64,000 bases of DNA from Candidatus Borrarchaeum weybense (GTDB lineage: Archaea > Asgardarchaeota > Sifarchaeia > Borrarchaeales > Borrarchaeaceae). The position numbers and the translations under genes are program-made. The notes beneath the pieces are model-generated. The model made no database searches. It was not told the origin of the DNA and saw only the letters and a program-made list of their open reading frames with translations. The stretch spans positions 980,727 through 1,044,726 of the forward strand of contig JAHQJS010000004.1 in NCBI GenBank assembly GCA_019057385.1, in the 5' to 3' direction. Positions 18,952-27,992 of the stretch are shown here, piece after piece; the stretch's first letter is position 1, and each line of letters begins with the position of its first letter.

Positions 18952-19257
18952 TTTGATTTCACCTCAATGAGTATATATCTAAAAAGTGATATCCTAAAGT
19001 GTATACCTAAAAGCTATTTAAGACTTAGCTTTTTTGCTGATAGACACTTACGTCACAGATCAGACAGGTCTTTACCTCACACAAATAGGGGTGCACGTCA
19101 TAAGTCTGAATCCTGCGAAATTGATGACTGGGTTTTGTTCAATATCGATTTTCTCACGTTTAAGCTCGATGCCTTGCGTGATAAGATGCAAGGAATGCTG
19201 TACTAAATTTGTGGAGTTTAAAAATCAACTGTAATATAAGATAAATAGAAGGCGATC

Positions 19258-20784
19258 ATGATGATTCAGACCATCAAACTCCGAATGTATCCTGATGAGG
19301 CACAAGAATATCAACTCCATGAAATCTTTACCATCTATAACCGGGTGAAACGCATTGGTTACAACCTGCTGTTTCATAACGAGGACTACATGGTAGAGCG
19401 CTTCGATGAGGGTAAAACCATCCAACAGTGTTTGATGAGTCTGTGCCACAATAACCCTTATGTCAATACTATCTTGATTGACAACAAGGCGCAACTGGAA
19501 TCACAAAAGACGTGGCTGGAAAAACGACGCACACGCATGACACAGCAGCTACAAGTCATCATCAAGAAAATCAAAACAATAAAAGAGAAAGATACACATG
19601 ACAGACGGTTGAAGGGCTTATACGCCCGTAGATCCTCAATAATGGCTAAACTGCGCAATTTACACCTCGAACCTGTGGTATTTGGCACTAAGAAATTATT
19701 CAGAGACAGAATACGCGGCAACATAAGTAGGGAAGAGTTCAGGATACGACGGGATTCTTCTTTCAGTTGCATTGGAAAGCAACAGGGAAAAAACCTGAAC
19801 ATTAAAGTATTGCCCAGAAAAACCGTCAAGATACGCACCTTTTCCAAGCAAAAAGGATGCAAATGGCTGATCATTTCCCTTTCCGTAAACTCTGTGCAGG
19901 AAAAATGGTTTCAAGATATTTTTAATTCCGACAAATACACGGTGACCGTGAAACGGAAGTTTTTCAAGGGGACGGTGCGTTATTTTGTCCATGTTTCTTA
20001 TGAAATTCCAGAACCTGTACCACGTTGTGGCTACGAACATGGTGCCATCGGATTAGATTTCAACTATAATTTTGTTGCCCTGACCAATGTCGATCAACAT
20101 GGTACATTACTCTCTTATCATACCATTTCGTTTTGCAACCTCCACAGCTATCGAACAAATAAACGTAGCGATTACATCTCTTATAAGATGGATAAAGTCG
20201 TCAATTATTGCATCAATAAGGGCAAGGGCATCGTGGTCGAGGACTTACAATTCGGCCAAGAGTTTTACTATAATAAAAAACGCAACCGAAAATTCAGCAA
20301 TATGAAGACCACTGCCTTGCAGCTGTTAGAGAGAAAATGCAAAAAGCGAGGTGTGTCCTTTCGAAAGGTATTTCCTGGATATACCTCCATAATCGGGAGG
20401 TATAAGTATTCAGGATTACATAATTTGTCAACACATCACTTAGCAAGTTATGTAATAGCTCGAAGGGGTTTAGGTTTCAGGGAAGTCATTCCAGCCATCT
20501 ACGATTGGGTGTCCTCACAAGTCGGGGAGTTCATAGAACCCCGTTTGAAACAGGATAGTCCTTACCGTAGATGGTCGATGATCCATGACCTCTTCAAGCA
20601 CAGTGGGATAACTTCCTTCAAGGCTGCCGAAATACTTAAAAAAACAGTATTAATGAGGCATGTTTTGCACTCGGTGACGAGCGCACAGCCCGATAACCTT
20701 AAGGCTGGTTCTTCCTTCTTGAAAGCAGGGAGAATTGATGATTATTATAAAGTGTGGAATTTTATAACTAATCCCACATTATAA
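19258..20784 (+). CDS. tnpB: IS200/IS605 accessory TnpB-related RuvC nuclease (no adjacent TnpA)
   Basis: N-terminal TIKLRMYP, RuvC-I GLDFN, RuvC-II VVEDL, PGYTS, STHHLASYVIARRGLG. Confidence 0.8.
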   Translation: MMIQTIKLRMYPDEAQEYQLHEIFTIYNRVKRIGYNLLFHNEDYMVERFDEGKTIQQCLMSLCHNNPYVNTILIDNKAQLESQKTWLEKRRTRMTQQLQVIIKKIKTIKEKDTHDRRLKGLYARRSSIMAKLRNLHLEPVVFGTKKLFRDRIRGNISREEFRIRRDSSFSCIGKQQGKNLNIKVLPRKTVKIRTFSKQKGCKWLIISLSVNSVQEKWFQDIFNSDKYTVTVKRKFFKGTVRYFVHVSYEIPEPVPRCGYEHGAIGLDFNYNFVALTNVDQHGTLLSYHTISFCNLHSYRTNKRSDYISYKMDKVVNYCINKGKGIVVEDLQFGQEFYYNKKRNRKFSNMKTTALQLLERKCKKRGVSFRKVFPGYTSIIGRYKYSGLHNLSTHHLASYVIARRGLGFREVIPAIYDWVSSQVGEFIEPRLKQDSPYRRWSMIHDLFKHSGITSFKAAEILKKTVLMRHVLHSVTSAQPDNLKAGSSFLKAGRIDDYYKVWNFITNPTL

Positions 20785-20789
20785 ATAAT
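20741..20789 (+). other. Imperfect inverted repeat at the tnpB 3' end (possible right-end/omega-RNA hairpin)
   Basis: attattataaagtgtgg ... cccacattataaataat. Confidence 0.4.
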
Positions 20790-20918
20790 TGTAAGGTTTA
20801 AGAATATCCACATAATTTTTCTTGATTCCCAGTCCGTTTCGTAAGTTCAAAATTTGTCTTCCTCTTATAAGCTCTAAATTTAGAAAGTCAAATTAAGGAT
20901 TCAAAGGAGTTCCTAATT

Positions 20919-21335
20919 GTGAATAAACAAACTGATTTACAAAATAATAAGGAACTTTATGGCGTTTTCAATGAATTAAGGAACTATTTAGCCGGTATGG
21001 CTGCTGGTATGACTCGTGATGAAAGTTTAATACAAGAATTGATACCTCTTCTCTTTTGTAAAATTTATACTGAAAAAAATATAGATTTGAAAGATAAGTT
21101 TCGAGCAGAATCAAAAGAATCAGCCGGTGTTATAAAAAGGCGGATTTCAGCAATTTTCAAAATGGTTAAGAAAGAATTTGAGGATATTTTTGAAGAAGAG
21201 GAAAAAATTGATCTAAAGGCGGAATCAGTTAAGTTCATTGTCAGCAAGCTGCAAAATCATGATCTAACGACGGTGGATCAAGATGCAATCGGAAATCTGT
21301 TTGAATCCTTCCTTGGTCGATCGTAGCCAAAGATA
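20919..21335 (+). pseudogene. 5' part of an N6-adenine DNA methyltransferase (HsdM-like N-terminal domain), interrupted by insertion
   Basis: FNELRNYLAG..GMTRDESLIQELIPLLFCKIY...DAIGNLFESFLG aligns with FKDIKNHLYG..GITRDEALIQEIMNLLFCKIY...NAIGDAFEVFIG of 24093..26666; continues at 23694. Confidence 0.85.
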
Positions 21336-21427
21336 CCAATTTGCTCGTAGCTAAAACAACTAATACTGATACTAAAATGTTACTCAAGCAGATTTGATTG
21401 TTTTGTATAATTAGTAGATGGTATCTA
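21331..21427. repeat. Long imperfect inverted repeat at the left junction of the insertion
   Basis: agatacca/tggtatct, tttgct/agtaga (with G-T pairs), aaaacaa/ttgtttt nested arms. Confidence 0.55.
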
Positions 21428-21523
21428 GTGTACAACTGATTTTCTCATTATTTACAAACAACTAAAATCTCAAATAACGTCTATAAACCACGAAAATTTA
21501 CTATCATACTTTTACTGTGGTCT

Positions 21524-21566
21524 CTCTCTAGTAAAATATATTATATTTCATAATTTTTCTAGAGAG
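21524..21566. promoter_or_regulatory. Palindrome flanking the TATA-like promoter of the cas7-like gene (possible operator)
   Basis: ctctctagtaaaat ... atttttctagagag around an AT-rich TATA-like stretch. Confidence 0.45.
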
Positions 21567-21595
21567 CATGTATGTATTCTATCGAGGTTGTAAAC

Positions 21596-22408
21596 ATGAA
21601 ACAAACAAAAAAACAGATCGTGGTTCGTGCCTATACTCCAATAGCTAAACCTCATAATGTGTCTATTCAAAAAAATTCCACTATGCTTCTTCTAGGTGAA
21701 ATTTCTTATGAAAGTGGTTCGAAAGCATTCAATACAAAACTGTATTACATTAAAGGGGTACGCGGAATGTTGAGGCATGCCGCCATGTCTCTTGCTCAAG
21801 ATTGTGGTATAGAAGTCTGCCATTCCAGTGAAAAAACTGAGCTCAAAGATGGGACTCAACTCGTTCCTTCTGGTTTCCATCCTCTTGGCTCATGTGATCC
21901 TCCTTGTATTCTCCGAAGAATCTTTGGCACCTTCCGCGAAGAATCCTCAATCTCCGTCTTAGTTGATCCTATTGCTTCGATAAAGCATAAAGAATACACT
22001 ACTGAGTTACCTGCTCAAAAAGTCCATATCGCCACTGAAAATAGGATAGCCCTTACTTATGATAGAACGGCTATTCAAGATTTTCGTGAAAGCTATTTCA
22101 GCGGGTATTTTAACTTCGTAATCGACATCACAAATTTAACCGATGATGAGATCAAGTTCATCGTGGAATCGTTGCTCTACATCGAAACACTTGGCAGTGG
22201 CAAAAATGCTGGTTATGGATATATCAAGATTCTAGAGGTCGAAATCCAGAATGTACATGTTTTGCGAAACATCACGATGGATAACGGAGTATATAAGATC
22301 ATTGAAGAAATCGAAGTAAAACCGATACTACTTGAAAACATCGAAGAATGGAGAAACGCGTATATGAGAGAAAATCTGATAAAAATTGAACAACAACACT
22401 CCACTTGA
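21596..22408 (+). CDS. Cas7-group RAMP protein (Csm3-like, Zn-binding insert)
   Basis: RAMP hallmarks: first strand ending TP (AYTP), KGVRGMLRH helix, C-H...H...C..C.LRRIFG, C-terminal G-rich loop LGSGKNAGYG; GAGGT RBS before ATG 21596 (alternative start 21572). Confidence 0.85.
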   Translation: MKQTKKQIVVRAYTPIAKPHNVSIQKNSTMLLLGEISYESGSKAFNTKLYYIKGVRGMLRHAAMSLAQDCGIEVCHSSEKTELKDGTQLVPSGFHPLGSCDPPCILRRIFGTFREESSISVLVDPIASIKHKEYTTELPAQKVHIATENRIALTYDRTAIQDFRESYFSGYFNFVIDITNLTDDEIKFIVESLLYIETLGSGKNAGYGYIKILEVEIQNVHVLRNITMDNGVYKIIEEIEVKPILLENIEEWRNAYMRENLIKIEQQHST

Positions 22409-22482
22409 TTAGTTGTGAAAGGGCGTGAGAAATAATGGAGATTTTCTCTTCTAAGACGCTCATCGCCCGCTTTTTCTCAGCT

Positions 22483-22606
22483 AAGACGGAATACTTCTTG
22501 TAATCTGCAAGAAGCACGTTCTTATGTGAGAGACAGTTATTATAGAGGTCCCAAACCTCGGTTGATGGGGAAAGAATGTCCGGCAGAGGGATGAATAAAA
22601 CGATAA
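22483..22606 (+). ncRNA. Structured repeat copy A (candidate guide-RNA scaffold)
   Basis: Homologous to 23573..23694; AAGACGGA-hairpin-CGTTCTT, GAGAC, GAGG-TCCCA-CCTC hairpin, ends GATAA. Confidence 0.65.
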
Positions 22607-22708
22607 CTACTTTACCAAAAGGGTTACAAAAGCCGTTACTTTCCCATGGTCTTATATCTCCCGTTTAAATGACAAAAAATTTAAAACATCCTATAGTGGT
22701 GCTGAAAA

Positions 22709-23512
22709 ATGCCAAAAAGATGGTTTAAATTATCTGGTGTAACTAAAACTCCAGTGATCACGAAAAAAAGACATTTTTTTCATAAATTTGGGGTAATTAC
22801 CATTAATGGTAGTCCTAGAGTGTTCGGTAAACTTACGAAAGGTGAGAGACGCGCTCCTATGACCTTTAGGGCATGGCATGGAACAGTAGAGTTTATTATT
22901 CCTCACTCAAAACTCGAACCAGCGCTCGCTATTGAAAGTATCGGGAGATATACCCATGAAGGGATGGGGCAAATACTGTGGACAAGTGTAAAACAACTCC
23001 CCAAAAGACCTCTCTATACTCCAAAAAAAATTAGGATTCGTAAAATGCTCCCAAAACTTTCAGATACATGGGAAAAACTAATGATCGCCATGTTACTACA
23101 TGATTTCGTGAATACTGAAAAACATTCCAGCAAAATTTACTCTGAGGTTACTATCGTTGATGACGACGTATATAATCTAGCGAAAAATCATCATAATTAC
23201 GAGATGGATGAAAGGGAATTGCCCCTCCTCGCTACCCTCCAACATTATGACCAAGTTTCTTCCTCAATTTCTCGAAAGTTTAGGTGGTCTACCTCCTCAC
23301 GTTATCGTGCAGATATTCAAGAGAAAATAGATTTTGATACACTAAAAAGAGAGATAGAATTGAGAAAACATTCTCTTTATGCTCTTTATAGCTTCATCTA
23401 TAAGTCTCAAGTACTTAATGAGATCAATGAGGCAATAGAATTTGGTTTCTCTTCTTTAAAAAACCATCTTCTTCTGATGGTCAATCTCTTTCTTGATGAC
23501 CTTTATGGATGA
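22709..23512 (+). CDS. Minimal Cas5-like RAMP fused to a circularly permuted (Cas10-type) HD nuclease
   Basis: N-terminal FKLSGVTKTP strand and G-loop IGRYTHEGMGQI; C-terminal LLHDF, HH, YD..SS..R and terminal SLKNH (first HD His motif moved to the end, as in Cas10). Confidence 0.75.
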   Translation: MPKRWFKLSGVTKTPVITKKRHFFHKFGVITINGSPRVFGKLTKGERRAPMTFRAWHGTVEFIIPHSKLEPALAIESIGRYTHEGMGQILWTSVKQLPKRPLYTPKKIRIRKMLPKLSDTWEKLMIAMLLHDFVNTEKHSSKIYSEVTIVDDDVYNLAKNHHNYEMDERELPLLATLQHYDQVSSSISRKFRWSTSSRYRADIQEKIDFDTLKREIELRKHSLYALYSFIYKSQVLNEINEAIEFGFSSLKNHLLLMVNLFLDDLYG

Positions 23513-23572
23513 GTTTTTATGTCACAAGTTATGGTGTTGCAATCCCTCTTTACAGATAAATATACAGGATGC

Positions 23573-23694
23573 AAGACGGACTGTTCATCGCATATCGCGA
23601 TGAACACGTTCTTGTACATGAGACTGAACCCGAGAGGTCCCACGCCTCAGATGACGGGAATGGATGACAGGCCAAAGGACGAGAAAAGTGATAA
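23573..23694 (+). ncRNA. Structured repeat copy B (candidate scaffold ending at the element's right junction)
   Basis: Perfect 10-bp hairpin TGTTCATCGC/GCGATGAACA with compensatory changes relative to copy A; ends GATAA immediately before the resumed MTase codons. Confidence 0.65.
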
Positions 23695-23755
23695 ATACGG
23701 ACACTTTTTCACGCCAAGAAACGTTGTCAGATTCGCTATTACCATTAATGATCCT
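23694..23755 (+). pseudogene. Resumed fragment of the interrupted methyltransferase
   Basis: YGHFFTPRNVVRFAITINDP matches EGQFFTPRNVVRMAVEILDP of the intact paralogue; homology then stops. Confidence 0.8.
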
Positions 23756-24092
23756 AGGAATGGTAATGGCATCCTCCCTATTTTTTTATTTTTTCAATAA
23801 TAGTTTTACATGAACCTCTCTTTTAAAAAAATGCCATTCATCCACATTATCATAGAAACTTCTAGCGAGATTACTAAGACTTGCCCAGAGCATCTATCTA
23901 TAACACACGAAAGATCAAACTTACTATAACAAAATAAACGTCAGAGGGGTTCTGGTAAAATGCTTCATAATTTTGAATAGTTTTGTCGGTTCCCCATACA
24001 ATTTTATAGATGTTGTTTGCAAAAAAGAACATCAAATTAGATTTCCTAGTTTTTTAACTTAAGTCAATGATTGCTCAGGTTGGTTAAGAATT

Positions 24093-26666
24093 ATGCCGAC
24101 ACGAACGAAATCAGTTGAAAAGGTTTCCTTTGCTGAGGAACGCGTCAAAGGACAGATGAGACTTATTGATTTTATTTCTGGAAGTTTAGTTGAAGCCACA
24201 CCTGAAGAGGTAGAGGCTGTTCAGGTCTTTTCTCGCAGATTGGTCGAAGAGTTTGGATATGATAAAAATCAAATCCAAACAAGACCTCAATTTAAAATCC
24301 GGGGCGCACCGTCAGGTAAACCAAAATATCCTGTTGACATAGCCGTCTTTAATGACGAAAAAAAAACCCATGGCAACTTGTTTATGATTGTCGAATGCAA
24401 ACGAAAGACTCGTCGAGATGGAGAAAAGCAACTGAAAATATATTTGGGACTATCAAGTGCTCAGATAGGAGTTTGGTTCAATGGTAGTGAGCACCTCTAC
24501 CTACAGAAGATTCTCGACAAAGAGGGAAATGTAACCTACAATTTAATTCCCACGATTCCCAAAAAAGGACAAAGAATTGAAGATATTGGCAAATACAAGC
24601 GAAAAAACCTGACGAAACCGAGTAATATAATCTCTTTGTTCAAAGATATTAAGAATCACTTATACGGAAACGTCGTAGGAATTACTCGTGATGAAGCTTT
24701 AATACAAGAAATAATGAATCTACTATTCTGCAAAATATACGATGAACTGAATACTGCTCCGGAAGATGATGTTGCTTTCAGAGTAGGAATCAATGAAGAC
24801 TCGAATCAGGTCAAGGAGAGAATCTCTGAGCTATTCAAGTTTGTGAAAATAGCATACGAGGATATCTTCGAAGAGCGAGACGAATTACGTCTTGATCCTG
24901 ACTCACTTTGTTATGTTGTTGGCGAATTGCAACCTTATAGTCTGTCAGAAGTAGATAGTAACGCAATAGGCGATGCGTTCGAGGTATTCATTGGAAAGGC
25001 GCTCAAGGGTGCCGAGGGGCAGTTTTTTACACCTCGAAATGTGGTTCGAATGGCTGTTGAGATACTTGACCCACAACCCTACGAACATATCGTTGATCCT
25101 GCATGCGGTAGCGGAGGTTTCTTAATATTTGCAATGGAACATGTGTGGCAAAAACTTAAGATTGAAGCTAAAAGAAAGAATTGGTCAACCGAAATGCTAC
25201 AGAAAAGAAAGACAGAAATTGCGAGCAAATTTTTTGGTGGAATTGACAAGGACATGTTCCTAGCAAAAGTCACAAAGGCTTACATGGCACTAATAGGTGA
25301 CGGTAGAGGCGGAATATTCTGTGAAAACTCTTTAGAATTCCCAGAAAAATGGCAGGCGACTACCCAACAAAGAATAATGCTTGGTAAATTTGATGTTCTA
25401 TTTACTAATCCTCCCTTCGGATCAAAGATCACTATCAAGAAATCATTGTATTCTCAGTTCGAGTTAAGCTTTAAATGGAATAAAAACAAAAAAACTGGTA
25501 AGTGGAAGAAGGGTAATAAACAGGCAGACAAAAGACCACCGCAAGTTCTGTTTATTGAGCGATGTTTACAATTTCTTGCTCCAAACGGAAGAATGGCAAT
25601 CGTTTTACCTGATGGTTTATTAAGCAATCCCAGCGATGGTTATATTACACAGTATATCAAGGATAATGCTGAGATCATTGGACTCGTCGATTTACCAATG
25701 AGTACTTTCTTACCTAATACACCCACGAAGACACATATTTTGTTCTTAAGAAAGAAAAAACCTGAGGGGAACTATCCAATCTTTATGGCCTACGCGAAAA
25801 CTTGTGGACATGATAAGAGAGGGAAGATCATCTATAAAGTCGGTGAAGCTGGTCAAAATGTTGTTGATGATGACATTTATGAAATATCAAAGCATTTTGC
25901 TCGCAGATATGAAAGAGTTAATAAATATGATAGGAAGGGATTTCTTGTTTATCTTGACGATTTAAAGTCAGGTATACTGTTACCGAAATATTATAATCCA
26001 GAATTGAATGAGAGATTAGAAGCGTATCGACAGACTGGTGAATATGACGTTTATTCTATAGGTGATTTAGTTAAACTGGGAAAGTTGTGGATAAGGAGAG
26101 GCCATGAAGTCGGATCTGTGAATTATGGAACTGGCGATATCCCGTTTATTCGGACTTCGGAAATATCAAATTGGGAACTAACTGCCGATCCTACTCATTG
26201 TTTAGCCGAGGATATATACGAGGAATACAAGGATCGCCAGAAACTAAAAAAAGATGATATCTTAATTATAAATGATGGTACGTACCTAATGGGTCGAACC
26301 GCGATACTTTCTGAAAATGATACAAAAATTGTTGTTCAAAGTCACATCAGAATTCTTACAGTCTTAGACCGAGAATTTATTCACCCTTATCTTTTGTTGT
26401 TCCTCTTAGGATTGAGAATTGTTCAAGAACAGATTGAGTCGAAATCCTTTAGACAAGCTACTATCTCTACTCTAGGAAACAGACTTCTTGAAATCAGAAT
26501 CCCACTACCAAAAGATGAAAAAGTAAGAAAAGAAATTGTTGAGCAAGTTTCTAACATAGTTGAGAAGCGCTCGATGCTAAGACATAAGGCGATGAATATT
26601 GAATTCAATGGAACATCAGAGAGTGTTATGGGTATAAAAAACAAGGCAACCTTGGGAAATCTATAG
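24093..26666 (+). CDS. Fused restriction-modification enzyme: HSDR_N-like PD-(D/E)xK nuclease + N6-adenine MTase + HsdS-like TRD (type IIG-like)
   Basis: VDIAVF..IVECK, GQFFTPR, DPACGSGGF, NPPF, C-terminal TRD (GDIPFIRTSEI, DDILI...G..GR.A, IPLP). Confidence 0.88.
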   Translation: MPTRTKSVEKVSFAEERVKGQMRLIDFISGSLVEATPEEVEAVQVFSRRLVEEFGYDKNQIQTRPQFKIRGAPSGKPKYPVDIAVFNDEKKTHGNLFMIVECKRKTRRDGEKQLKIYLGLSSAQIGVWFNGSEHLYLQKILDKEGNVTYNLIPTIPKKGQRIEDIGKYKRKNLTKPSNIISLFKDIKNHLYGNVVGITRDEALIQEIMNLLFCKIYDELNTAPEDDVAFRVGINEDSNQVKERISELFKFVKIAYEDIFEERDELRLDPDSLCYVVGELQPYSLSEVDSNAIGDAFEVFIGKALKGAEGQFFTPRNVVRMAVEILDPQPYEHIVDPACGSGGFLIFAMEHVWQKLKIEAKRKNWSTEMLQKRKTEIASKFFGGIDKDMFLAKVTKAYMALIGDGRGGIFCENSLEFPEKWQATTQQRIMLGKFDVLFTNPPFGSKITIKKSLYSQFELSFKWNKNKKTGKWKKGNKQADKRPPQVLFIERCLQFLAPNGRMAIVLPDGLLSNPSDGYITQYIKDNAEIIGLVDLPMSTFLPNTPTKTHILFLRKKKPEGNYPIFMAYAKTCGHDKRGKIIYKVGEAGQNVVDDDIYEISKHFARRYERVNKYDRKGFLVYLDDLKSGILLPKYYNPELNERLEAYRQTGEYDVYSIGDLVKLGKLWIRRGHEVGSVNYGTGDIPFIRTSEISNWELTADPTHCLAEDIYEEYKDRQKLKKDDILIINDGTYLMGRTAILSENDTKIVVQSHIRILTVLDREFIHPYLLLFLLGLRIVQEQIESKSFRQATISTLGNRLLEIRIPLPKDEKVRKEIVEQVSNIVEKRSMLRHKAMNIEFNGTSESVMGIKNKATLGNL

Positions 26667-26718
26667 TACCTTAGTTGATTTTTGGTCTCTTATATATCTA
26701 AGAATATAAGTTAAAGGC

Positions 26719-27555
26719 TATAAAATCGATAAGAATGGAGATAAACAACTCGATGATGATCTTTTGCAAATAGGTAAGCGATATCATGATCTACGTCAAA
26801 ATTTTAATGAAAAATATGACCATCTAGGTTTTTTCATTGACGTACAGAATTTAAAAAAAGGAATTCTCATGCCAAAATATTACAACCCAGAAATCAAGAA
26901 TGAATTAAGGAGGCTTAAAGAAACAGGCCATTATGATTTGGTAAGTATTGGAGAGTTGGAGGGACAAAACACACTCCAGATAAGTTGTGGTCACGAGATA
27001 GGTTCTATAAATTATGGCACAGGAGATATTCCTTTCATTCGCACCTCTGAAATAAGTAACTGGGAGATTGCAGCAGATCCGACTCATTGTGTTTCAGAAG
27101 ATATCTATGAGATGTACAGAACAAAGCAGGATCTACAGAAAGACGATATTCTTATTGTAAATGATGGGACCTACTTAGTTGGTCGAACTGCAATTCTATC
27201 AGAATTTGATGTGAAAATTGTTATTCAAAGTCATTTTAGAAAAATTCGTGTTCTTGATTGGAGTGACTTGACGCCGTATCTTTTGCTTTATCTGTTAGGT
27301 TTGAGAATAGTTCAGAATCAAATAGAAGCGAAAACATTTCGCCAGGCTACTATCTCGACTCTTGGAAATAGACTGCGAGAAATCATTCTGCCTATTCCAA
27401 AGAATTCCAAACTTAAAGCAGAAATTTCTGAAAGTGTAGAACTCATCGTTGGGAAACGTGCAAAATTACGGAATCAGGCTATGCACATGCAATTTGATGA
27501 TAAAAAAGAGAATGTGATGGGACTGCAAAATAAAGCAGCCCGTGGTAATATCTAG
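26719..27555 (+). pseudogene. 5'-truncated duplicate of the MTase C-terminus/TRD (or free specificity subunit from TTG 26764)
   Basis: Highly similar to the last ~270 aa of 24093..26666; in-frame homology (YKIDKNGDKQLDDDL vs YKVGEAGQNVVDDDI) extends upstream of the called start to a stop codon. Confidence 0.65.
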
Positions 27556-27626
27556 TGAAGTTCTAAAGGTTCGGTTTCAGATAATTGACAAACTAGTCTC
27601 GGGCTAATAAACACACTCAATAAAAT

Positions 27627-27992
27627 TCACGGAAAGGGTCTGATTTCATAAATTATCTTCCCTGTTTTTAATACATGCCGTAAGAATCTACTAATTGGAA
27701 TATGTTCATTTAGTTCCTCTTCTGTATACGCTAGTATATCACAGTCTACAGCCCTCTCTATAATCTCATAGATCTCTTTCATCCATTCTTTTCCTGATTT
27801 TGTGGGAGGCATAATAACAAAGAGGTCTAAATCACTCCATCTACCGACTTTTCCATGAGCTACAGAGCCAAACAATATTATTCTTATAACTCCCATCTCT
27901 TTAAGTTGTTGTGTAATTTCTTTTAGCCCTTGAAACAACTTCTCTTTTCTTTTTTCCTTTTGTGCGCGAAGTTCTTTCAATGTTAGACTCAT
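27627..27992 (-). CDS. Minimal nucleotidyltransferase (MNT, antitoxin type)
   Basis: ILFGS.A.G....SDLDL, VDCD, G+IIYE. Confidence 0.85.
   Translation of the reverse strand: MSLTLKELRAQKEKRKEKLFQGLKEITQQLKEMGVIRIILFGSVAHGKVGRWSDLDLFVIMPPTKSGKEWMKEIYEIIERAVDCDILAYTEEELNEHIPISRFLRHVLKTGKIIYEIRPFP

Follow-up and report, generated by a model that had tools for sequence, protein, structure and literature searches.

What is a pair of genes related to CRISPR effector subunits doing inside a broken DNA methyltransferase (MTase) gene of an Asgard archaeon, and how did it get there? The question is raised by a 64,000-nt stretch of the genome of Candidatus Borrarchaeum weybense (the window; G000:C4:980727-1044726, where G000 is the 4.18-Mb genome in 8 contigs). 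There, a segment of about 2,373 nt carries a Cas7-like open reading frame (ORF1), a second one predicted to encode a RAMP domain fused to an HD domain (ORF2, RAMP-HD), and two copies of a putative structured RNA. We propose, with a probability of roughly 0.6, that the segment is a copy of an ARAMP cassette that lacks its helicase-Cas1 gene, ARAMP being a class 1 CRISPR derivative of Asgard archaea that has no array and stands closest to types III and IV. The segment and the gene pieces on its two sides, all on the + strand, are composed as follows.

20919..21322 (fragment ORF to 21326), +: MTase piece 1, the N-terminal 135 codons of an ancestral 688-aa gene joining an MTase to a target-recognition domain (TRD)
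21323..21571, +: left 249 nt of the insert, AT-rich and unique in the genome
21572..22408, +: ORF1, Cas7-like RAMP protein, 278 aa as listed; Pfam RAMPs 30.8 bits
22473..22613, +: RNA copy A (internal, more diverged); covariance model 102.4 bits
22709..23512, +: ORF2, RAMP-HD; predicted single RAMP (RRM) domain at residues 1-105 and Cas10-type HD domain at residues 118-267
23563..23701, +: RNA copy B (terminal); covariance model 137.4 bits; the insert terminates on the right at the 3' end of this copy, ...GTGATAAATAC followed by GGACAC
23696..23760 (about), +: MTase piece 2, ~20 codons, YGHFFTPRNVVRFAITINDP, in a short frame ending YGHFFTPRNVV

The two MTase pieces are collinear on the intact MTase encoded nearby: piece 1 matches its residues 169-303 (42% identity, E 4e-34) and piece 2 its residues 309-328 (14 of 20 identical), with about five residues missing between them. 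A DNA search of four other genomes of the same genus recovered the empty allele that a preliminary description of this locus had proposed to look for. The orthologous gene is unbroken in G308:C42, as a 688-aa ORF, and in G306:C16 (87% and 85% DNA identity to piece 1, respectively), and the reading frame continues in both from ...FESFLGRS into LKGSKGQFFTPRNVV. Since the gene is whole in two genomes of the genus, positions 21323-23695 of the window are an insertion, and the cassette entered this type I/IIG-like MTase gene after the species had split from its sister species. Homology to the empty allele ends on the left after GGTCGATC and restarts on the right at GGACAC; about 16 nt of the target were lost, and the comparison shows no target duplication. 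The splitting of one MTase gene into collinear pieces, as first described, is thereby upheld, with the qualification that piece 2 amounts to just ~20 codons and that the rest of the old gene was replaced separately. Conspecific contigs from several metagenomes, 94-97% identical in DNA, also carry the insertion. A comparison of the locus with contigs turned up the deletion of the internal RNA copy alone and no contig bridging the whole insert.

As judged from its AlphaFold2 (AF2) model, ORF1 is a Cas7-fold subunit, a highly diverged homologue of Cas7. The model has a predicted local distance difference test (pLDDT) score of 91.6, and Foldseek returns 179 matches for it at E<=0.001 (best E 5.9e-08); the top 50 are all chains of class 1 effectors, mostly of the Cas7 group (type VII Cas7, Csm3/Csm5, Csf2 and Cas7-11), with type VII Cas7, Csm3 and Csf2 scoring best. 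The likely true start of the protein is the ATG at 21596, where all its paralogues begin. Its family is small, with 59 cluster representatives in 1.84 billion proteins (E<=0.001), and residues C83, H103, C108 and C112 are invariant in it, which suggests a zinc site.

ORF2 is less confidently modelled (pLDDT 79.6). NCBIfam gives nothing significant for either protein, Pfam HD falls under its cut-off on ORF2 (E 0.022), and Foldseek finds no match to the ORF2 model at E<=0.001, the weak top matches being mostly RAMPs. Superposition is more informative. Residues 118-267 fit best onto the N-terminal HD domain of Csm1/Cas10 (VIA-align; 6ifk_A, Z 7.6, root-mean-square deviation (rmsd) 3.9, 140 aligned; 6mua_A, Z 6.8), and residues 1-105 onto single RAMP domains of Csf3, Csm4, Cmr3, Cas6 and Cas7 at Z 5-7.5, all values in the middling range by the tool's own grading. 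As the top rows consist almost entirely of CRISPR RAMPs and HD domains of Cas10, the models support a fusion of a RAMP domain with an HD nuclease domain of Cas10 type, in which the HD residues are intact. The invariant residues are H131-D132, H139, H161-H162, D181 and H253, and the N-terminal part contains a glycine-rich loop. The locus had first been described as Cas7 plus Cas5-HD: the Cas7 fold, the RAMP domain and the Cas10-like HD domain stand on the AF2 models and superpositions, whereas Cas5 cannot be distinguished there from Cas6 or Cas7, as the Z values of Cas5-group chains (7xfz_B 7.5, with rmsd 3.0 and 102 aligned; 8rc2_F 7.0; 9g9a_G 7.0; Cmr3 3w2v_B 6.3) are tied with those of Cas6 (3qjj_A 7.0) and of Cas7-group chains.

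ORF2 is under purifying selection: against a 96%-identical metagenome allele it shows 11 synonymous and 12 non-synonymous changes, a dN/dS (ratio of non-synonymous to synonymous rates) of 0.29. Relatives of ORF2 are present in 36 of 400 genomes from the phylum, representing 11 genera, and one homologue is recorded under Candidatus Borrarchaeum / Promethearchaeota. A predicted complex of Cas7 with RAMP-HD scored 0.56 (best of three controls, 0.00), a mark reached by 58 of 80 solved complexes and 2 of 110 mismatched pairs, with 7 of the 80 and both mismatches lying at <=0.60. The contacts agree between runs to at least 70%, and the partner pLDDT is at least 53. The prediction lends weak support to the pair, and its pass may reflect likeness to solved Csm and Cmr complexes.

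The two genes are each followed, in sense orientation, by one copy of the ~125-nt RNA. Covariation is strong and identifies the repeat as a real structured RNA. RNAalifold, applied to 19 copies, draws a 10-bp hairpin, a long-range closing helix of CGUUCU with GGGACG, and an inner hairpin, GAGGU/GCCUC. In 53 RNA sequences from six genomes, 95.1% of pairing cells are occupied by pairs, vs 85.1% after shuffling and 41-49% in slid controls; there are 185 double-change cells where 67.7 are expected, and none of 500 shuffles reaches the observed values, in an alignment that was fitted to the model and is therefore biased towards structure. Nine of ten pairs of the first hairpin covary, and copies A and B differ in this hairpin by compensatory changes. 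U-G pairs are frequent on the sense strand only, which is in keeping with an RNA transcribed in the direction of the genes and not with a DNA site. Rfam holds no family for it at E up to 10. A likeness between the GGATGAC stretch of the motif and the end of the CRISPR repeat of the genome (…GGATTGAAA) was judged too weak to use. The claim that a repeat of ~123 nt is a structured RNA recurring with the genes has thus gained support, from this covariation and from the 29 copies that an iterated nhmmer search finds in G000. In 151 genomes sampled with the covariance model, the RNA is confined to the genus of the window and to G309; it is absent from the searched genomes of families with distant ORF2 homologues, of which few were sampled.

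The window copy is one of many. Paralogues in G000 number 11 for Cas7 (44-79% identity) and 10-11 for ORF2, and the loci are usually laid out as [helicase-Cas1]-Cas7-RNA-RAMP/HD-RNA. Homology between the window cassette and the paralogous loci begins, by blastn, at the start of ORF1; the ~150 nt of the left part nearest to ORF1 bear a weak likeness to the intergenic (promoter) region between helicase-Cas1 and Cas7 of full-length loci. Six of the 11 loci are preceded by an ORF of 1,323-1,363 aa with DEAD/Helicase_C domains, split in two at one locus. In a genome scan with PF01867, Pfam Cas1 matches the C-terminal part of two of these helicase ORFs above the cut-off (40.3 and 35.9 bits). Pfam run on the whole helicase ORF of locus C4:752k reports helicase domains only, and phmmer with the last 530 aa of the helicase ORF finds no match among PDB sequences. 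Besides the window copy, the loci without helicase-Cas1 are C6:562k, C4:525k, C3:64k and C5:80k.

None of the 11 loci has a CRISPR array; the only array detected in G000, of at least 49 repeats, lies at C4:148433-152109, ~830 kb from the window. Within C4:148433-154474 this array is accompanied by a canonical cas1 gene (PF01867, 269.6 bits). Two leucine-rich-repeat genes stand upstream of the full-length C4:752k locus (L012:1816-4161), and paralogues of them flank other loci (cluster F5).

ARAMP systems are reportedly the subject of Makarova, Wolf, Shmakov, Liu, Li and Koonin (2020, CRISPR J 3:156). According to review summaries, they consist of Cas5 and Cas7 homologues, a nuclease and, in most loci, a distinct Cas1 (PMC8730458; PMC12669027). 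The family in the window is likewise restricted to Asgard archaea and array-less, with a highly diverged Cas7 and a RAMP protein nearest to type III and an associated nuclease. A distinct Cas1 is present in the family, as the helicase-Cas1 fusion of 6 of 11 loci, and missing from the window copy. The helicase-Cas1 of the six sister loci, together with the make-up of Cas7, RAMP and nuclease, identifies the family as ARAMP. The nuclease differs: here it takes the form of an HD domain joined to the RAMP, whereas HNH and PD-(D/E)xK nucleases are given as the commonest in those summaries (PMC8730458; PMC12669027), in which a companion RNA, defined ends or empty sites are not mentioned either.

This bears on three statements of the preliminary description. 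No CRISPR array, cas1, cas2, cas6 or transposase was said to be present, which holds inside the segment (it has two genes only, with no Cas10 or Cas8 large subunit beyond the HD domain and no Cas11) and fails for the family, given helicase-Cas1 at six loci. The term "non-autonomous" is reasonable, as the window copy is without an integrase while six sister loci encode helicase-Cas1. The suggestion of a new minimal system, on the other hand, is withdrawn: the window element is a Cas1-less member of a published family, and its gene set is not new.

Among the better-known systems, types III (Csm/Cmr) and IV-C come closest, by the Cas7 backbone fold, a RAMP resembling Csm4, Cmr3 and Csf3, and a Cas10/Csm1-type HD domain; a Cas10-like HD subunit is also known from type IV-C (PMC13676074). 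They differ in having a Cas10 palm/cyclase, Cas11, Cas6 and a repeat-spacer array, all missing here, and in their RNA, an 8-nt handle plus spacer instead of a 125-nt fold of several helices.

How such cassettes move is best seen at their ends. Five further insertion sites besides that of the window are each empty in at least one genome of the same genus (RHH stands for ribbon-helix-helix).

Window insert: 3-6 nt from RNA to junction; empty in G308:C42 and G306:C16
G000 C6:562k: 5.2-kb segment with two unknown ORFs, a small divergent RHH gene, Cas7, RAMP-HD and RNA; empty and contiguous in G308:C35 and G307:C105
Solo RNA at C4:562854: ends a 446-nt insert; empty in G305, G307 and G308
Solo RNA at C4:1262877: ends a 1,222-nt insert with a TauE-family gene on the other strand; empty in G306:C5
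G308:C21: cassette of the C6:562k type, adjoining DNA found at G000 C4:702604; right junction 6-8 nt after the RNA
G308:C95: 2,566-nt insert, Cas7-RAMP/HD-RNA plus 420 nt, with a 7-8-bp duplication of TCATTAA; G000 C5:164150 is empty

The right junction falls 3-13 nt past the 3' end of the RNA in the first five of these, as it does at one further locus that has no known empty site. At C6:562k it lies 4-10 nt after the RNA, and the target was neither lost nor duplicated. Homology among all G000 loci ends at the end of the terminal RNA; conserved cassette sequence follows internal copies and unique flank follows terminal ones. A cassette 82% identical to that of G000 C4:906k adjoins different DNA in G308:C46. 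Of seven partial RNA copies, five keep the 3' end and none keeps the 5' end alone. At the counterpart of C4:1262877 in G308:C120, the 3' half is all that remains of the RNA.

The inserts differ in their left ends and in their cargo (Cas7/HD, RHH remnant, GIY-YIG, TauE). The left part of the C4:562854 insert is a remnant of an RHH/promoter region of the C6:562k type, and the only recurring left end is the RHH-gene end of that subtype. Altogether, the cassettes prove to be insertions whose right end is fixed and defined by the RNA, with a variable left end and cargo. The reading as a mobile, Cas1-less element that had been put forward is supported, with a defined right end only: insertion, variable sites and a right end at the RNA are observed, but left ends and cargo vary and duplication is not consistent. 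The pattern is not the signature of a casposon or of a DDE element; closer parallels are one-ended or 3'-anchored processes, and with OMEGA-type elements it shares solely the placement of the RNA.

The RHH-like gene (MGSISVSIPDDLEQQLREKG...) stands divergently upstream of Cas7 in the Cas1-less cassettes of the C6:562k type (L015:7200-7400, G000 C6:562.2k; L096:2165-2471) and marks the left end that they have in common across G000, G308 and G307; the RHH call was made by eye.

The units are also modular. Single gene-RNA units occur as Cas7-RNA at C3:64k and as an ORF2 fragment with RNA on C7, and C4:906k strings them together as Cas7-RNA-HD-RNA-GIY-YIG-RNA. At the latter locus a 97-aa GIY-YIG nuclease gene (Pfam 57.9 bits) lies between RNA copies 2 and 3 (L103:358-651, G000 C4:903.6k) and forms a third gene-RNA unit. 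At C5:118-120k (L013:3028-4849) there are three RNA copies, one of which, directly upstream of ORF2, is nearly identical to the terminal copy, including ~30 nt of 5' flank; ORF2 is thus bracketed by long direct repeats, which may represent a tandem insertion or duplication.

We favour the following scheme for this ARAMP cassette. Cas7 and RAMP-HD would assemble on the RNA, in analogy to Csm3 and Csm4-Cas10 on CRISPR RNA, and the HD domain would act as the nuclease. The helicase-Cas1 of six other loci would act in trans to move gene-plus-RNA units such as that of the window, with the movement anchored at the RNA-encoding right end.

Several observations weigh against it. Repeat searches, upstream alignments and all-against-all blastn of left parts and tails found no shared left end and no terminal inverted repeats. 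Target duplications are inconsistent, with none in three cases, an A-rich stretch of 12-14 nt that may be duplicated in one (C4:562854) and 7-8 bp in one, and such irregularity is unlike the normal outcome of integration by Cas1 or a casposase. At G308:C95 and at G000 C4:341k, where no empty site is available, 400-420 nt of unrelated DNA separate the RNA from the junction. Copy A is polymorphic: conspecific metagenome contigs and run X7 have lost it through a 145-nt deletion at a TACTT microhomology (window 22491-22637; L049:3385-3560), and the strains with this deletion keep both genes. The variable parts of the RNA are the covarying hairpin and a 7-10-nt loop, and the motif alignment contains no spacer-sized variable stretch or guide segment. 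Finally, the family profile detects no Cas7 in two relatives rich in the RNA, G309 and G306, whose assemblies are 80% and 76% complete.

That last observation leads to the strongest competitor, which we consider possible though doubtful: the mobile unit would be the RNA-encoding element itself, either a small, selfish gene for an RNA or a recombination end, attC-like or one-ended (IS91/ISCR-like), that drags upstream DNA along, with Cas7 and RAMP-HD as frequent cargo or servicing proteins and the RNA not a nuclease guide. The constant right end next to changing left ends and cargo, the retention of the 3' end by 5'-truncated copies and the lack of a target duplication in most cases all agree with it. 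So do the relatives, in which the covariance model detects the RNA at least 21 times (G309) and at least 8 times (G306); with the RNA abundant in two relatives without detected Cas7, an RNA-centred mobile unit fits at least as well. The G309 copies belong to a diverged subfamily (L066-L085). Eight or more of them are preceded by a common 5' unit of ~130 nt that includes a hairpin and a TATA-like box and is without counterpart in G000, and the sequence behind each of these copies is unique, so that they look like independent small genes or a family resembling miniature inverted-repeat transposable elements. This competitor is opposed by the full-length RNA copies in the genus of the window, which mostly follow Cas7 or RAMP-HD genes; by the strand-specific pairing rich in U-G, which points to an RNA; by the incompleteness of both assemblies and the remnants of ORF2, its only trace, in G309; and by the fact that no motif-specific recombinase was identified. 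Integron cassettes (attC) and one-ended IS91/ISCR elements offer an analogy for variable cargo followed by a conserved structured element, for serial units, and for one fixed end without target duplication. The element here differs in being conserved in sequence and U-G paired, like an RNA, and no tyrosine recombinase or HUH enzyme accompanies it.

An OMEGA-like system is an unlikely alternative. Here Cas7/RAMP-HD would be an RNA-guided nuclease, the scaffold RNA would end at the right end and take its guide from the flanking DNA, and the whole would serve homing or retention, as TnpB and its omegaRNA do for IS200/605. The conserved part of the sense RNA stops 3-13 nt before the junction of element and host, and read-through would therefore copy the host flank; the HD catalytic residues are conserved, ORF2 is under purifying selection, and most insertions, as in IS200/605, made no target duplication. 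The many RNA-bearing derivatives without proteins recall PATEs. However, class 1 Cas7 filaments normally require an unstructured guide of ~30 nt, and no such stretch is evident. Behind the internal copy lies fixed cassette sequence and not flank, no common target-adjacent motif is found at the left or right flanks, and there is neither a Y1 or serine transposase nor, in the alignments, a subterminal left-end hairpin or common left-end sequence. Compared with IS200/IS605 OMEGA systems (TnpB/IscB), moreover, the proteins are RAMPs and HD instead of RuvC, and TnpA and a conserved left end are missing. The preliminary description had gone this far, calling the element an RNA-guided nuclease and the RAMP counterpart of TnpB-omegaRNA; with no variable guide segment in the RNA, that reading remains conjecture.

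A bolder extension of our ARAMP reading strikes us as equally improbable: that the gene-plus-RNA units form a new mobile system in which one RNA would be both a subunit of the Cas7/RAMP-HD nuclease and the determinant of the fixed right end, with RNA-guided or RNA-primed movement and helicase-Cas1 acting in trans, a class 1 counterpart of the OMEGA systems of TnpB and IscB. Casposons and the Asgard aCas1-TnpB transposons (PMC10691335) are relevant in that integration of an Asgard mobile element is suspected to depend on a homologue of Cas1. They differ from the present loci, which lack PolB, terminal inverted repeats and any regular target duplication of 14-15 bp, and whose Cas1 is fused to a Hel308/Ski2-like helicase and is missing from the window copy.

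Least likely is an ordinary, immobile defence-island gene set that generic recombination shuffled into the methylase in a restriction-modification hotspot, with the RNA motif as a 3'-untranslated stabiliser or a terminator: the ancestral gene did take further hits, which makes the site a sink for rearrangements, the paralogous cassettes are old (65-80% protein identity) and unrelated DNA follows the RNA in two cases, but five independent right junctions, all 3-13 nt from the same end of the RNA, the occurrence of RNA copies at unrelated sites, alone or 5'-truncated, and the same type of cassette at different sites in G000 and G308 speak against it.

ARAMP and HRAMP are the least understood CRISPR derivatives; in their summaries, the reviews treat them as array-less, with an unexplained mechanism and no RNA partner named. 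Our literature searches retrieved no paper on an RNA of ARAMP systems and, as far as the literature found shows, the insertion evidence, the RNA-defined end, the modularity of the cassettes and the protein-less RNA copies are undescribed. These same features make the family experimentally tractable: the locus and its relatives offer a covarying candidate RNA partner, natural filled and empty sites and testable ends, and the window copy is a compact version of two genes without Cas1, kept intact in the population. Were the RNA the partner of the effector, "array-less" systems would gain an RNA; were its end to drive mobility, class 1 Cas proteins would be linked to transposon biology as class 2 is through TnpB and IscB.

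The remainder of the window around the cassette records a longer history of the same MTase gene. On the + strand, the ORF listing and Pfam give the order TnpB-like ORF, MTase fragment, ORF1, ORF2, YGHFFTPRNVV frame, 857-aa gene and 263-aa ORF, and three further features belong to it.

19203..20800, +: unrelated TnpB-type insertion sequence (IS), ORF 19258-20784, 508 aa; adjoins piece 1 and is separate from the cassette
23770..26713, +: second replacement in the ancestral gene, with a complete 857-aa HSDR_N + N6_Mtase + TRD paralogue at 24093-26666
26714..27563, +: C-terminal remainder (TRD) of the ancestral MTase, ORF 26764-27555, 263 aa; Pfam Methylase_S

The ORF of G308 begins with the counterpart of piece 1 and continues unbroken through ...FESFLGRSLKGSKGQFFTPRNVV...; since this single 688-aa ORF matches both gene ends, the ancestral gene was an MTase-TRD fusion. 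In G000 it took three changes: the upstream TnpB IS, the RAMP insert and a separate replacement of the catalytic core. The replaced stretch is just 66-70% identical in DNA to the G308 gene, and positions 26714-27563 are 96% identical to the 3' part of the 688-aa ORF in G308:C42. The TnpB-type element, of the TnpB-only IS200/605 type, has at least 15 copies in the genome (78-84% DNA identity) and weak Pfam matches to Cas12f1-like_TNB and HTH_OrfB_IS605. It is missing from the orthologous site in G308:C42 and G306:C16 and is part of the same insertion sink, though outside the cassette.

With its core replaced and the old TRD end kept as a separate ORF, the MTase gene looks like the product of a specificity swap in a restriction-modification system. 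Beside these restriction-modification genes, at 27627-27992 on the - strand, a 121-aa ORF carries a GS...DLD nucleotidyltransferase motif (MNT-type, by eye) and may be half of a HEPN-MNT pair.

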